Positions 1 through 4,975 of a stretch of DNA of 7,777 nt are shown one piece after another. The stretch lies in IMG/VR virus record IMGVR_UViG_2645727743_000027, one strand, 5' to 3'. Within the stretch, counting starts at the first letter, position 1; each line of letters begins with the position of its first letter. The stretch comes from a virus (lineage: Duplodnaviria; Heunggongvirae; Uroviricota; Caudoviricetes). The notes beneath the pieces were generated by a model. The model searched no databases, was not told the origin of the DNA, and saw only the letters and a program-made list of their open reading frames with translations. The translations under genes and the position numbers were made by a program.

Positions 1-201
1 ATGACTACGACTATTGATAAAAATCAATGGTGTGGACAATTCAAGCGATGCAATGGATGCAAGCTGCAATCGGAATGCATGGTTAAGCCTGAAGAAATGT
101 TTCCTGTAATGGAAGATGGGAAATATGTCGATAAATGGGCAATACGAACGACGGCAATGATTGCCAGAGAACTTGGTAAACAGAACAACAAAGCTGCCTG
201 A
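1..201 (+). CDS. ral: Restriction alleviation protein Ral (66 aa)
   Basis: 66-aa ORF starting at window position 1; sequence MTTTIDKNQWCGQFKRCNGCK...NNKAA matches my recollection of lambda Ral; position upstream of ea10 fits lambda. Confidence 0.88.
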   Translation: MTTTIDKNQWCGQFKRCNGCKLQSECMVKPEEMFPVMEDGKYVDKWAIRTTAMIARELGKQNNKAA

Positions 202-337
202 TAGTGGCCTTTATTTTTGGCATAAATAACAGAATAAACACTGCACTGTGTATTCATTCCAACGAGTGAATACACGGAGCAATGTCGCTCGTAACTAAAC
301 AGGAGCCGACTTGTTCTGATTATTGGAAATCTTCTTT

Positions 338-364
338 GCCCTCCAGTGTGAGGGCGATTTTTTA
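338..364 (+). terminator. Intrinsic-terminator-like hairpin (GCCCTC-6 nt loop-GAGGGC followed by GATTTTTTA) in the ral-ea10 intergenic region
   Basis: 6-bp GC-rich inverted repeat at 338-343/350-355 followed by a T-run at 356-364; lies between two co-directional genes, as expected for an N-antiterminated pL-operon terminator. Confidence 0.45.
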
Positions 365-383
365 TCTATGAGGATATGAATAG

Positions 384-752
384 ATGTCAAACATCAAAAA
401 ATACATCATTGATTACGACTGGAAAGCATCAATAGAAATTGAAATCGACCATGACGTAATGACAGAGGAAAAACTTCACCAGATTAATAATTTCTGGTCA
501 GACTCTGAATACCGACTCAATAAACACGGCTCTGTATTAAATGCTGTATTAATCATGCTGGCGCAACATGCTCTGCTTATAGCAATTTCAAGCGACTTAA
601 ATGCATATGGTGTTGTGTGTGAGTTCGACTGGAATGATGGAAATGGTCAGGAAGGATGGCCTCCAATGGATGGTAGCGAAGGAATAAGAATTACCGATAT
701 CGATACATCAGGAATATTTGATCCAGATGATATGACTATCAAAGCCGCCTGA
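384..752 (+). CDS. ea10: Ea10-like early protein (122 aa)
   Basis: 122-aa ORF in the position and of the size of lambda ea10, between ral and cIII. Function not inferred from sequence. Confidence 0.75.
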   Translation: MSNIKKYIIDYDWKASIEIEIDHDVMTEEKLHQINNFWSDSEYRLNKHGSVLNAVLIMLAQHALLIAISSDLNAYGVVCEFDWNDGNGQEGWPPMDGSEGIRITDIDTSGIFDPDDMTIKAA

Positions 753-824
753 GCGCGGCGTTACCGCATACCAATTACGCTTCACTCGAGGCGTTTTTCG
801 TTATGTATAAATAAGGAGCACACC

Positions 825-965
825 ATGCAATATGCCATTGCAGGGTGGCCTGTTGCTGGCTGCCCTTCCGAATCTTTACTTGAACGAATCACCCGTAAAT
901 TACGTGACGGATGGAAACGCCTTATCGACATACTTAATCAGCCAGGAGTCCCCAAAAATGGATAA
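825..965 (+). CDS. cIII: CIII, FtsH (HflB) protease inhibitor, 46 aa (shorter than lambda's 54 aa)
   Basis: ATG at 825 preceded by AAGGAG at 813-818. Translation [46 protein letters not shown] matches lambda CIII through its conserved central helix; stop at 963-965. Under 60 aa so absent from the ORF track. Confidence 0.85.
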   Translation: MQYAIAGWPVAGCPSESLLERITRKLRDGWKRLIDILNQPGVPKNG

Positions 966-1101
966 AAAAATTATGGCTATCCAGACAAAATTCACTATCG
1001 CCACTTTTATTGGCGATGAAAAGATGTTTCGTGAGGCCGTCGACGCTTATAAAAAATGGATATTAATACAGAAACTGAGATCAAGCAAAAGCATTCACTA
1101 A
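958..1101 (+). CDS. kil: Kil (47 aa), host cell-division inhibitor
   Basis: ATG at 958 overlaps the cIII 3' end in another frame; [47 protein letters not shown] matches lambda Kil (47 aa) apart from residues 3-5. The 89-aa track ORF 832..1101 is this gene plus an in-frame upstream extension across cIII. Confidence 0.85.
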
Positions 1102-1176
1102 CCCCCTTTCCTGTTTTCCTAATCAGCCCGGCATTTCGCGGGCGATATTTTCACAGCCATTTTCAGGAGTTCAGCC

Positions 1177-1473
1177 ATGAACGCTTATTACATTCAGGAT
1201 CGTCTTGAGGCTCAGAGCTGGGCGCGTCACTACCAGCAGATCGCCCGTGAAGAGAAAGAGGCAGAACTGGCAGACGACATGGAAAAAGGCCTGCCCCAGC
1301 ACCTGTTTGAATCGCTATGCATCGATCATTTGCAACGCCACGGGGCCAGCAAAAAAGCCATTACCCGTGCGTTTGATGACGATGTTGAGTTTCAGGAGCG
1401 CATAGCAGAACACATCCGGTACATGGTTGAAACCATTGCTCACCACCAGGTTGATATTGATTCAGAGGTATAA
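1177..1473 (+). CDS. gam: Gam, RecBCD inhibitor, short 98-aa form (GamS)
   Basis: [21 protein letters not shown]...[10 protein letters not shown] matches the C-terminal 98 aa of lambda Gam with about 3 substitutions; located between kil and bet. Confidence 0.92.
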
Positions 1474-1478
1474 AACGG

Positions 1479-3286: not shown

Positions 3287-3366
3287 CAACCACTGAATGC
3301 ATTTTTCTGGCAGCGGGCTTCATATTCTGTGTGCTTATGCTTGCCGACATGGGACTTGTTCAATGA
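3283..3366 (+). CDS. Candidate 27-aa hydrophobic micro-ORF (MTTTECIFLAAGFIFCVLMLADMGLVQ)
   Basis: ATG overlaps the orf63 stop as ATGA, and its own stop overlaps the next ORF's ATG as ATGA (3363-3366), a translational-coupling pattern. Hydrophobic, membrane-peptide-like. No homology claimed. Confidence 0.3.
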   Translation: MTTTECIFLAAGFIFCVLMLADMGLVQ

Positions 3367-3578
3367 CACCTCAGCAGGAAAACGCCCTTCGCAGCATTGC
3401 CCGTCAGGCTAATTCTGAAATCAAAAAAACCAGACAGCAGTTTCCGGATAAAAACGTCGATGACATTTGCCGTAGCGTACTGAAGAAGCACCGCGAAACG
3501 GTAACGCTGATGGGATTCACACCGACTCATTTAAGCCTGGCGATCGGCATGTTAAACGGCGTCTTTAAGGAACGGTGA
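3363..3578 (+). CDS. Small exo-xis region protein, 71 aa from ATG 3363 (frame is open from ATG 3297, 93 aa)
   Basis: Track ORF 3297..3578; I prefer the internal start at 3363 because of the ATGA coupling with the micro-ORF. Occupies the orf61 position of lambda but the size differs, so no symbol is assigned. Confidence 0.5.
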   Translation: MTPQQENALRSIARQANSEIKKTRQQFPDKNVDDICRSVLKKHRETVTLMGFTPTHLSLAIGMLNGVFKER

Positions 3579-3600
3579 ACATGAAAAACAAAATCATCAT

Positions 3601-3622
3601 GGAGCTACAGGCTCCTTTTTTA
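3601..3622 (+). terminator. Terminator-like hairpin GGAGC-TACAG-GCTCC followed by TTTTTT
   Basis: 5-bp GC-rich stem at 3601-3605/3611-3615 followed by a T6 run. Short stem, so weak; it lies inside a possible 29-aa ORF (3581..3670). Confidence 0.35.
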
Positions 3623-3676
3623 TTGTTCGCATTCACCCTCAAGCGTATTAACCAACAATTCAGGGATTAATGGAAG

Positions 3677-3898
3677 ATGGCAGACATCATTGATTCAGCA
3701 TCAGAAATTGAAGAATTACAGCGCAACACAGCAATAAAAATGCGCCGCCTGAACCACCAGGCTATATCTGCCACTCATTGTTGTGAGTGTGGCGATCCCA
3801 TAGATGAGCGAAGACGCCTGGCCGTTCAGGGTTGTCGGACTTGTGCAAGTTGCCAGCAAGATCTGGAGCTTATCCGCAAACAAAGGGGGATTAAGTGA
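3677..3898 (+). CDS. orf73: TraR/DksA-family C4 zinc-finger protein (73 aa), lambda orf73-like
   Basis: 73-aa ORF with CxxC-N17-CxxC (CCECGDPIDERRRLAVQGCRTCASC), the signature of TraR/DksA-type zinc fingers; size and position match lambda orf73, which I recall as a TraR homolog. Confidence 0.8.
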   Translation: MADIIDSASEIEELQRNTAIKMRRLNHQAISATHCCECGDPIDERRRLAVQGCRTCASCQQDLELIRKQRGIK

Positions 3899-4182
3899 TG
3901 GCTAACCTGCAACTTGCTGTTAAAAATGAATACTTCGATGCCATGATTCGCGGAGAGAAAACGGAAGAGTATCGCCTTGTTAATGACTACTGGAAAAAGC
4001 GCCTCGTTAACCGCGAGTATGGCAGTCTGATCATCACGAAGGGGTATCCGAAGCGCGACGATTCCAGCCGCAGAATTGATGTTCCGTATGGCGGATATGA
4101 AATCAAGACAATCACACATCCGCACTTCGGCGATAAACCGGTAAAGGTATACGCGATAAAGGTGAATATCGGCAATGAATAA
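3898..4182 (+). CDS. ASCH-like (PUA-fold) small protein, 94 aa from ATG 3898
   Basis: The N-terminal pattern LQLAVKNEYFDAMIRGEKTEEYR resembles the ASCH-domain N-terminal signature (for example E. coli YqfB). GGGGGA Shine-Dalgarno about 7 nt upstream; ATG overlaps the orf73 stop (TGATG). The track start at 3895 is a GTG one codon upstream. Confidence 0.6.
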   Translation: MANLQLAVKNEYFDAMIRGEKTEEYRLVNDYWKKRLVNREYGSLIITKGYPKRDDSSRRIDVPYGGYEIKTITHPHFGDKPVKVYAIKVNIGNE

Positions 4183-4231
4183 CAATCCTCGCATTGGCGG
4201 GGATTTCTTTTATCTGAAAAGGACAGAATAC

Positions 4232-4327
4232 ATGATTAACAATATTGCAAATCAGTCTTCGTTTCCGGCTGCAACAATTGACAGCCAGATGCTGTTGAAA
4301 ATGGTTAATGAGGCGCGGAGACTGTGA
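4232..4327 (+). CDS. Short ORF (31 aa from ATG 4232; frame open back to ATG 4175) ending at a TGA that is in frame with the downstream 186-aa ORF
   Basis: AAAGGA Shine-Dalgarno 8 nt upstream of ATG 4232. The frame continues without any stop from the TGA at 4325-4327 to ATG 4415 and on to 4975. Either a separate small gene or the N-terminal part of an interrupted gene. Confidence 0.3.
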   Translation: MINNIANQSSFPAATIDSQMLLKMVNEARRL

Positions 4328-4414
4328 GGCGAAAAAGAAGTACGCAACAACGACTTCATTGCACGCATCAAAGATGAGCTTGAGGGGGAGGGTTACGAAA
4401 TTTTCGTAACCCCC

Positions 4415-4975
4415 ATGGATAAGAAAAAAGGCGGAGCGGATCAGGTGGTTATAGTGATGACCTACAAGCAAGCCCTGCGCGTCGCCGCACGTGAGTCGAA
4501 AGCCGTCCGTCGTTCGCTGGTCGACAAACTTGAATCAATGCAACAGCAGTTGCAACAAAAAACGACCACGAAGAAATCACCGGATGGCCTTGAAGAATTC
4601 CGTAAGGCACGCGCATTGAAAATGACCGTCGACACAATGAAAGACCTCTTCGACTTCCTCCCTCACCTCGCACCGGAAGCTAAACAGGTCGTTGCCGCCA
4701 GCCTGATTAATCCCGTCGTCGGCTTTAGTGCAATCCCTCTTCCGGTCATTGATGAACATCACTACTCTGCGTCGGAGGTTGGCACCATGCTTGGCATTTC
4801 AGCCAACAAGGTAGGGCGCATTGCCAACACCTACATGCTCAAAACAGAAAAGTACGGGAAGTGGTTCATCGACAAATCGGCGCACAGTGACAAGCAGGTC
4901 GAGACATTTCGCTACAACGAGGCGGGAGTGCACAAGATCGAGGAACTCATCGAAGGAGAACGAAAGGCTGCATGA
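4415..4975 (+). CDS. Hypothetical protein, 186 aa (Ea22-sized; predicted coiled-coil middle and helix-turn-helix-like C-terminal segment)
   Basis: Long ORF with protein-like composition, in the position where lambda carries ea22 (182 aa); I cannot confirm homology from memory. No canonical Shine-Dalgarno directly upstream; a perfect palindrome sits at 4390-4412. Confidence 0.65.
   Translation: MDKKKGGADQVVIVMTYKQALRVAARESKAVRRSLVDKLESMQQQLQQKTTTKKSPDGLEEFRKARALKMTVDTMKDLFDFLPHLAPEAKQVVAASLINPVVGFSAIPLPVIDEHHYSASEVGTMLGISANKVGRIANTYMLKTEKYGKWFIDKSAHSDKQVETFRYNEAGVHKIEELIEGERKAA

Follow-up and report, generated by a model that had tools for sequence, protein, structure and literature searches.

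Proteins that end in two alanine residues are strongly over-represented among the early (non-structural) proteins of lambdoid phages, roughly tenfold above composition, the host and other coliphages, and the ending is partly maintained in homologues. Four examples stand in the stretch of DNA analysed here, 7,777 nucleotides (nt) of the IMG/VR virus record IMGVR_UViG_2645727743_000027 (Caudoviricetes), hereafter called the window, which is the early-left arm of a lambda-like prophage from ral to int: Ral, Ea10, Bet and an open reading frame (ORF) of the anti-repressor family all end in Ala-Ala. We infer that selection acts on the peptide, and the best reading of the tails, to which we give a probability of about 0.4 from what the sequences suggest, is that they would serve as C-terminal degrons resembling the ssrA tag.

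Excess of Ala-Ala ends

The first-pass annotation of the window had reported that four of roughly seventeen coding sequences (CDS) end in Lys-Ala-Ala or Val-Ala-Ala, and had considered this more than chance would give. Both statements were borne out: Ral, Ea10 and a 186-residue ORF end in Lys-Ala-Ala and Bet in Val-Ala-Ala (Table 1), the genes counted number about 16-17, and the probability of at least four such ends in 17 is 7.5e-6 at the bulk lambdoid Ala-Ala dipeptide frequency of 0.76%, or 1.75e-4 for four in 17 if any dipeptide may be the repeated one. The 186-residue protein, however, is not a complete gene but the C-terminal part of a broken 247-residue anti-repressor gene. The window is 100% identical over 4232-4975 to the anti-repressor-family protein P0200 (247 residues) save for an in-frame stop at 4325-4327, where the intact P0200 has Arg; judging by this comparison, the gene would be either a pseudogene or expressed only as the 186-residue restart product.

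A count of C-terminal dipeptides over whole genomes, which had been proposed as a check, lies far above composition. In phage lambda, 8 of the 72 annotated CDS end in Ala-Ala (B, orf55, Bet, Ea10, Ral, NinB, NinC and NinG; P = 9e-8 against the bulk frequency), and the two positions are tightly coupled, such that Ala-Ala makes up 8 of the 12 proteins that end in Ala and 8 of the 10 that have Ala at -2 (the last residue being -1). P22 has 7 such ends in 70 (Cro, Kil, gp17, NinB, NinG, NinY and NinZ). When both phages are taken together, the ending is found in 14 of 78 early genes versus 1 of 64 others (P = 0.0017). The controls were 350 kb of E. coli K-12 (2 of 326), T7 (0 of 56), P2 (0 of 43) and the early region of Mu (0 of 24), against which lambda and P22 have an odds ratio of 26 (P = 2e-8); the host proteome has no like excess of Ala-Ala ends.

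For a broader count we used a lambdoid sample of 160 contigs around Bet or NinG plus lambda, in which a simple ORF caller of our own (it recovers 59 of the 71 distinct annotated lambda stops) yielded 3781 ORFs with 1348 distinct C-termini, falling into 511 families at 35% identity. The commonest terminal dipeptide in these families is Ala-Ala with 29.2 family-equivalents (5.7%), followed by Lys-Lys with 7.8, and the expectation for Ala-Ala is about 3.9 from bulk composition or 8.9 with independent positions. Its share is 13% in the immunity/replication/nin region versus 2.7% downstream of Q. A second sample comprised 50 prophage loci that carry Bet in other Proteobacteria, among them Pasteurellaceae, Pseudomonas, Enterobacter and Burkholderiales, where 2.0, 9.2 and 13.8% of the ends are Ala-Ala in low, mid and high G+C genomes and the bulk dipeptide frequencies are 0.4, 0.9 and 1.7%, which is a 5-10-fold enrichment at every G+C level. 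An artefact of amino-acid or G+C composition, or of ORF calling, can be set aside given these bulk values of 0.4-1.7%, the rejected non-coding "shadow" ORFs, of which 1.1% end in Ala-Ala, and the same excess in the annotated lambda and P22 genes. We therefore regard the excess in lambdoid early proteins as practically certain. As a general background, hydrophobic residue pairs are depleted at the C-termini encoded by 1,582 bacterial genomes (PMC7246954).

A side observation concerns the contigs of loci L169-L186 and L188, whose bet is 99-100% identical to that of lambda and many of which are short or of low coverage. Their assemblies are assigned to Bacillota, Bradyrhizobium, Enterococcus, Kitasatospora, Paenibacillus and others, and they look like contamination of the assemblies with lambda DNA and not like prophages.

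Conservation of the tails and the proteins that carry them

The question whether the tails are kept in homologues has a divided answer: they are kept in part in Ral, Ea10 and the anti-repressor family, but not in Bet beyond close relatives nor in distant Ea10 proteins. Among 32 distinct Ral tails, 11 end in Ala-Ala, with varying lengths and upstream residues (NNKAA, LNEAA, KQQAA, KNRAA, KLKAA), and the others include one-residue extensions or substitutions (AAS, AAN, AAM, TA, AI, HS). For Ea10 the figure is 16 of 63, the ending being kept down to about 55% identity, and longer Ea10 tails again end in Ala-Ala (...VPQAA, ...IPHAA, ...TTSAA, ...KPAA). The anti-repressor family ends in Ala-Ala or Val-Ala in 86 of 120 proteins; in its distinct tails the last residue is Ala in 72% and the penultimate one Val or Ala, and over the last ten residues variability is lowest at -1 and -2 and highest at -3 and -4. 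Of 150 representatives of the Bet family, 21% have Ala as their last residue, with Ala-Ala in close relatives only. Since the C-terminal domain of Bet is not conserved across the family, Bet has no say on tail conservation beyond these relatives.

The tail is carried by a wide range of proteins. Besides Ral, Bet, Ea10 and an analogue at the ea10 position, it is found on the Nin set (NinB, NinC and NinG, and in P22 NinY and NinZ together with Kil), on several Cro-type repressors and further helix-turn-helix families, and on small proteins without a known function. Two of the Cro-type sequences we take to be 434 Cro (...GTKRGKAA) and P22 Cro (...YRQAA); the tail of lambda Cro is ...KTTA. The Ala-Ala-ended Cro-type genes are followed by the boxA of nutR (CGCTCTT(T)A) 8-15 nt past their end, for instance in L014 (6275-6460) and L078 (5807-6199), and the P22 record (L249) likewise encodes at 31744-31970 an Ala-Ala-ended Cro-type protein with nutR boxA behind it. 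The boxA-like sequence CGCTCTTTAACA that follows several Ala-Ala ends had been considered as a new repeat, but it is this nutR behind Cro-type genes, and the sole match to it in the window has two mismatches and is at chance level. Presumably, to judge from the sequences and not from a family search, two further families are other recombination proteins, and one resembles, by eye only, a DNA methylase. Several have an anti-repressor-like sequence, an assignment which the family search confirms only for the 247-residue gene of the window. Separately, two families in prophage loci end in ...NDDLAA and ...RLSQAA; by eye we take them to be copies of OrfB, the transposase of the IS3 family.

Gene ends at the level of DNA

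The ends of ral and ea10 had also been noted to share a DNA motif. Both copies of this 12-mer, AAAGCYGCCTGA, are indeed present, and in the window the exact pattern is found at these two ends only, but the motif is not conserved as DNA. If up to one mismatch is allowed, it has three matches versus 0.10 expected, a number reached in none of 200 shuffles, the third being the end of a minus-strand ORF of 57 codons (Table 1). We considered this ORF as a gene, but it has no PHROG match, overlaps an Rfam match to sRNA-Xcc1 on the other strand and is probably a non-gene. Conservation as a 12-nt DNA motif fails already in lambda, whose ea10 ends ATCAAGGCCGCCTGA (AAG GCC GCC TGA) with AAG as the Lys codon in place of the AAA of the window, and both AAA and AAG serve as this Lys codon in related loci. 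Together with the synonymous Ala codons described below, this means that the DNA is not conserved independently of coding. The motif is Lys-Ala-Ala-stop spelled in codons, and two proteins that both end in Lys-Ala-Ala with TGA require little extra coincidence at the DNA level to share it.

The four gene ends in the window differ in their surroundings. The TGA of bet overlaps the ATG of exo (ATGA, 2261-2264) in a real stop-start coupling junction, whereas the ATGA at the anti-repressor end opens an ORF of only five codons, and the next gene in relatives lies about 320 nt downstream, so that this end is not a coupling junction. The stops of ral and ea10 do not overlap a downstream start codon. 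In the lambdoid families, Ala-Ala is the top dipeptide before TAA (6.1%), before non-overlapping TGA (4.3%) and at ATGA overlaps (10.1%), and the overlap is therefore not its sole cause. Lambda Bet, NinB, NinC and NinG all have the ending GCNGCATGA, but other spacers are used at 12 of the 17 ATGA junctions of lambda, and the coupled junctions of E. coli, T7, P2 and Mu have no Ala-Ala excess (1 of 13 ATGA junctions in E. coli).

The codons themselves vary synonymously within families (GCT, GCG and GCA in NinB; GCA and GCT in Bet), with GCG under-used among the terminal Ala codons. The dipeptide is fixed to the stop whatever follows, be it a start codon that overlaps the stop, the boxA of nutR at a distance of 8-15 nt, a terminator or, as at the anti-repressor gene, a gap of 320 nt. 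Ala is not enriched at -3 of the Ala-Ala tails, and the dipeptides Gly-Gly, Pro-Pro and Arg-Arg, which also have G+C-rich codons, show no C-terminal enrichment in lambda or in the 511 families.

With respect to RNA folding, none of the ral, ea10, bet and anti-repressor ends has a significant fold. The ral end (193-218, +) has a weak terminator-like hairpin with the stop in the loop, GCTGCCTGATAGTGGC then CTTTATTTTT, made of a 5-pair stem plus CUUUAUUUUU, with -6 kcal/mol and z = +0.75, which is not thermodynamically significant. At the ea10 end (744-759, +) there is a hairpin GCCGC-CUGAGC-GCGGC of 5 bp that holds both Ala codons in its 5' arm and encloses the stop; it has no U-run (z = -0.74). 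Elsewhere, lambda orf55 (L001 29103-29122, minus strand, just upstream of xis) ends in a strong hairpin (z = -2.75) followed by a U-run, CCGCCUGAUGGCGGUUUUUU; its two Ala codons form the terminator stem, and its stop codon lies in the loop. The end of P22 gene 17, GCCGCCTGA, overlaps an annotated terminator. Over all Ala-Ala ends, stems of at least 5 pairs that use the Ala codons occur in 18% with the real downstream sequence and in 8-20% with random downstream sequence. Hairpins or terminators as a general cause were rejected on the ground of this chance-level pairing.

Mosaic boundaries

A map of the endpoints of homology between the window and the 160 lambdoid loci shows that breakpoints cluster at gene boundaries. 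The top cluster is the ral end (201-244) with 66 endpoints, where 20 loci start their homology exactly at base 201 and one phage record matches from base 185, within the ral tail. The proposal that the gene-end motif coincides with mosaic breakpoints thus holds for the ral hotspot, but few endpoints fall at the ea10 end (7, at 742-766) and essentially none at the ends of bet (1, at 2267) and the anti-repressor gene (0, at 4975); strong clusters also occur at boundaries of genes without the tail (3882-3902, 363-377 and 1092-1095).

The related idea of a conserved boundary sequence at module junctions is weakly supported by the ral and ea10 ends, which are shared with unrelated genes, but it is at odds with the varying Ala codons and with the scarcity of joints at the Ala-Ala ends other than that of ral; moreover, gene boundaries are where lambdoid joints fall in general. 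Specifically, an unrelated gene for 83 residues shares the last ~15 nt of ral, ACAACAARGCTGCCTGA, together with the downstream DNA; the conserved intergenic segment GGCCTTTATTTTTGGCATAAA that follows ral is also found behind two unrelated Ala-Ala-ending genes in other phages; and an unrelated gene for 121 residues (...ETSAA) shares the GCCGCC-stop of ea10 and the DNA downstream of it. The end of a third gene found in the place of ral is GAGGCCGCATAG (GAG GCC GCA TAG), which is not identical in DNA to the ral end, so that its Ala-Ala arose separately at the DNA level. No boundary DNA shared with unrelated genes was seen at the bet or anti-repressor ends.

Layout of the window

The window matches lambda 34287-30402 over positions 1-3888 (about 98% identity) and the lambda xis-int-att region over 5979-7321 (76% identity). 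Between them, at 3889-5978, genes not found in lambda replace the lambda content; their families were assigned by PHROG family search (Table 1).

Table 1. Genes and ORFs of the window with their C-termini and, for the Ala-Ala ends, the last three codons with the stop
Feature	Position	Strand	Product	C-terminus	Final codons with stop
ral	1-201	+	66 aa, Ral antirestriction family PF11058	...QNNKAA	AAAGCTGCCTGA, 190-201 (+)
ea10	384-752	+	122 aa, DUF2528	...MTIKAA	AAAGCCGCCTGA, 741-752 (+)
cIII				...PKNG	
kil				...KSIH	
gam				...DSEV	
bet	1479-2264	+	261 aa, Red-beta	...EQKVAA	GTGGCAGCATGA, 2253-2264 (+)
exo	2261-2941			...EQWR	
orf60a				...SISR	
orf63				...RDQV	
93-aa gene			93 aa	...FKER	
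DksA-like gene			73 aa, DksA-like	...RGIK	
95-aa gene			95 aa	...IGNE	
anti-repressor-family gene	4232-4975	+	247 aa, phrog_1726	...GERKAA	AAGGCTGCATGA, 4964-4975 (+)
186-aa ORF	4415-4975	+	C-terminal part of the preceding	...ERKAA	as above
57-codon ORF	5136-5309	-	probably non-gene	...HKKAA	AAAGCCGCATGA; 1-mismatch motif copy at 5136-5147
AntA-type anti-repressor	5298-5921			...QFEF	
xis				...KAKS	
int				...EINK	

Several other features of the window deserve mention. The thermoregulator RNA element of lambda cIII (RF01804, 88 bits) is intact at 812-870, upstream of and into cIII. Within the replaced segment lies an isolated island of 40 bp (4179-4218) that is 92% identical to lambda 29361-29322. 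A hairpin of terminator-like form (4184-4205, with a T-run) falls at the same place, where the 95-aa gene ends, and the island resembles a conserved element of gene boundaries. Between the two anti-repressor genes, the gap of 320 nt contains the Rfam sRNA-Xcc1 match (RF02221, 5170-5258, +; 69 bits versus a gathering score of 53), and a strong sigma-70-like promoter (TTGACA-18-TATATT) lies at 5055-5084. The int gene is only 76% identical in DNA to lambda int. Past int follows the host Sib/QUAD locus (7345-7447, 7541-7683 and 7673-7775), with an Rfam SIB_RNA match of 138 bits and two 103-nt direct repeats that are 93% identical, which indicates that the prophage is integrated beside a type I toxin-antitoxin repeat locus and not at the lambda att site.

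Discussion

The anchoring of the dipeptide to the stop, the synonymous variation of its codons, the lack of an Ala preference at -3 and the tight coupling of -1 and -2 together argue that the constraint probably lies on the end of the upstream protein and not on a DNA element. Several other explanations have to be weighed against this. The idea that four Ala-Ala ends in 17 genes are a post hoc coincidence can draw on the fact that the class "Lys or Val, then Ala-Ala" was defined after looking. It is nevertheless of negligible probability and was ruled out by binomial, multinomial and Fisher tests: the result stays significant when any dipeptide is allowed, no dipeptide reached 8 of 72 in 200,000 simulations, and the excess recurred in two independent settings, P22 and the prophages of other genera. 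A more serious alternative, which we nonetheless consider unlikely, is that GCN GCN before the stop is favoured by signals at gene ends, with a functionless protein tail as the by-product. Such signals could be the spacer between a Shine-Dalgarno sequence and the next ATG (GGAG-GCNGC-ATGA), the arms of G+C-rich hairpins or terminators that span the stop, or stop-codon context. The peak at ATGA overlaps, the common ending of Bet, NinB, NinC and NinG, the terminators over the orf55 and gene 17 ends, the small hairpins around the ral and ea10 stops and the under-use of GCG all fit this idea, as do Glu, Arg and Gly at -3 and -4, whose codons (GAG, AGG, GGN) are Shine-Dalgarno-like. However, Ala-Ala is equally the top dipeptide where no start overlaps, most ATGA junctions of lambda use other spacers, coupling in E. 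coli, T7, P2 and Mu does not produce it, the Ala codons pair with downstream sequence no more often than by chance, and Gly-Gly, Pro-Pro and Arg-Arg are not enriched. Furthermore, the distance is fixed to the stop and not to the next start, and the anti-repressor gene, which has no coupled neighbour, belongs to a family that still keeps Ala-Ala or Val-Ala. Shine-Dalgarno influence explains the residues at -3 and -4, but not the Ala-Ala.

Mosaic exchange offers another route, by which a tail and its stop would be grafted onto unrelated genes by hitch-hiking with a conserved downstream segment. The sharing of tail and downstream DNA by Ral with the 83-residue protein and by Ea10 with the 121-residue protein is what one would expect from this, and so are the 20 loci that start at base 201, the commonest breakpoint in the window, and the match that begins inside the ral tail. 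However, at least about 30 Ala-Ala families differ in their Ala codons and are followed by unrelated sequences, the third gene at the ral position is not DNA-identical, breakpoints are rare at the ea10, bet and anti-repressor ends, the excess recurs in distant genera at all G+C levels, and such grafting gives no account of why the tail should be Ala-Ala at so many loci. Hitch-hiking hence explains some of the sharing at single loci but not the genome-wide excess, for which we think it quite improbable. Somewhat less improbable, though still doubtful, is a different role of the peptide, either as a shared peptide to which a phage or host factor docks, or as a set of weak tags that occupy ClpXP and so spare replication proteins of the lambda O type. 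The same evidence for constraint on the peptide would apply, and the restriction of the excess to lambdoid phages, with none in Mu, P2 or T7, hints at a lineage-specific partner or need. On the other hand, there is no known candidate partner, the tails sit on functionally unrelated proteins, and the ClpXP, ClpAP and FtsH group is the simplest reader known for a free Ala-Ala carboxy-terminus (PMC10862746 for ClpXP).

The idea of a degron-like tail was already raised in the first-pass annotation, and with the partial conservation, the excess and the fit to published ClpXP data it is still the reading that we prefer, although three of the four tails have Lys and not Leu at -3. A free Ala-Ala carboxy-terminus, which all four window proteins, the eight of lambda and the seven of P22 possess, would be the signal read by ClpX. 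Ala-Ala carboxy-termini are read by ClpA and FtsH too. With a weak tail of this kind, early and accessory proteins such as Cro-type repressors, Kil, anti-repressors, Ral and the recombination and Nin proteins would be shorter-lived, and they would be cleared after the lysis-lysogeny decision or after leaky expression from the prophage. In C-degrons of ClpXP the terminal Ala-Ala is the critical element: in a screen of random C-terminal pentapeptides in E. coli, Ala-Ala is the ending of 91% of the 100 top-ranked ClpXP-dependent degrons, most xxxAA tags direct degradation that depends on ClpXP, 61% of all xxxAA tags are at least as active as YALAS, LVA-type ends are also active, and function is lost with Gly or Ser close upstream (PMC10862746).

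Several observations weigh against degrons. Distant Ea10 homologues of the Salmonella clade have EEVS or EEVL in place of Ala-Ala, one-residue extensions past it (AAS, AAN, AAK, AAM) occur in Ral and Ea10, and in the Bet family Ala-Ala ends 7 of the 150 representatives, of which 4 are lambda-like fragments. There is no enrichment before TAG (1.1% of about 57 family-equivalents). The enrichment of Glu, Arg and Gly at -3 and -4 reflects downstream Shine-Dalgarno sequences, so that part of the Ala-Ala signal lies in translationally coupled junctions. In the window -3 is Lys in Ral, Ea10 and the anti-repressor and Val in Bet, and more generally it is Lys, Arg, Glu or Gln, and not Leu, in about half of the first 38 Ala-Ala families, where Leu, Met or Ala make up about a quarter. 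If Leu or another hydrophobic residue is counted as favourable and Gly, Pro, His and short polar residues as disfavoured, the latter account for about 22% of these 38 families, and for 29% of a pool of about 126 versus 35% in tails without Ala-Ala, a difference without significance (P = 0.14). ClpX binds ssrA less well when the residue at -3 is acidic, and many of the tails would hence act at best as weak tags. For Ea10, the AlphaFold model has a predicted local distance difference test score (pLDDT) of 94.9 with the tail as a short coil of pLDDT ~90, not clearly disordered, and that of Ral is of low confidence (mean pLDDT 66) with a helix to residue 65; searches of PDB sequences matched entries for Red-beta and NinB, with nothing on tail disorder. 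Literature searches aimed at stability or ClpXP turnover of Ala-Ala-tailed lambdoid proteins, which did not extend to older subscription papers, found no data. The temperate phages Mu and P2 share the host but not the pattern, and a need of temperate phages for degrons is therefore not sufficient as an explanation.

A wider version of the degron reading is possible, if more tentative: at least a tenth of the early and accessory proteins might carry Ala-Ala as a proteome-wide "expiry" code that is read by the host ClpXP, ClpAP or FtsH. With similar caution, this code may be said to span coliphage lambda, Salmonella phage P22 and the Bet-prophages of Pseudomonas, Pasteurellaceae and Burkholderiales. 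Its effect would be to set the timing of the early programme, to remove lytic proteins as the phage turns to lysogeny and to keep the toxicity of leaky prophage genes in check. No prior description of the lineage-wide excess was found in the searchable literature, which did not include older subscription papers, and the pattern appears to be undescribed, while its components, namely ssrA-like degrons, proteolysis of phage regulators, ATGA coupling and mosaic joints, are known.

Should the tails be degrons, well-studied proteins such as Red-beta, Orf/NinB, Rap/NinG, Ral and the Cro proteins of P22 and 434 would be subject to an extensive layer of post-translational control that has been overlooked. 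The stability of the Red proteins would then matter for recombineering, Cro turnover would enter models of the genetic switch, proteolysis could explain how leaky prophage genes are tolerated, and a simple sequence rule would predict short-lived phage proteins. If they are not degrons, the tenfold, lineage-specific excess of one C-terminal dipeptide still calls for an explanation and would suggest that gene ends in lambdoid operons are under a constraint not recognised so far.

Comparison with known systems

The known arrangement of gene ends resembles the present case in some respects. As in ATGA coupling, bet (with exo) and lambda ninB, ninC and ninG end in GCATGA. However, the overlap determines no more than the final base of the last codon, Ala-Ala is also on top where there is no overlap, and it is found at a single E. 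coli ATGA junction and at no gene end of T7, P2 or the Mu early region. Overlapping starts are known to favour NNA codons before UGA (PMC7246954). With the joints or linkers of lambdoid mosaics the pattern shares breakpoints at gene boundaries and, at ral and ea10, last codons and downstream DNA in common with unrelated genes; unlike these linkers, the Ala-Ala ending has no fixed DNA sequence, because its codons vary synonymously, and it is present at loci without breakpoints such as bet and the anti-repressor gene.

Short lifetimes are standard among the early regulators of lambda: O is degraded by ClpXP, N by Lon, and cII, cIII and Xis by FtsH or Lon. A phage C-terminus that is read by ClpX is known from MuA (...RRKKAI), and the Mu transposase in our control indeed ends in RKKAI. 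None of the classical unstable lambda proteins, however, ends in Ala-Ala (N ...IPLI, cII ...QMEF, cIII ...GYPD, Xis ...KAKS, O ...GVDL), and for Ral, Ea10, Bet, NinB, NinC, NinG, orf55 and B the searchable literature holds no report of instability.

Among degradation tags, the ssrA or "C-motif 1" degrons likewise depend on a free C-terminal Ala-Ala and also work with LVA-type ends (PMC10862746), which is comparable to the Ala-Ala or Val-Ala of the anti-repressor family. The ssrA tag differs in that it has Leu at -3 and is added co-translationally by transfer-messenger RNA (tmRNA), whereas the lambdoid tail is encoded in the genome and mostly has Lys, Arg, Glu or Gln at this position. In the integration-dependent immunity of mycobacteriophages, C-terminal tags on repressor and integrase, through proteases such as ClpXP, set lysogeny (PMC3694055). 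The likeness would lie in encoded C-terminal degradation tags on regulators of temperate phages. The mycobacteriophage system concerns two specific proteins and removes the repressor tag by integration within the gene, whereas the lambdoid ending, with no link to attP, is carried by dozens of unrelated early proteins.

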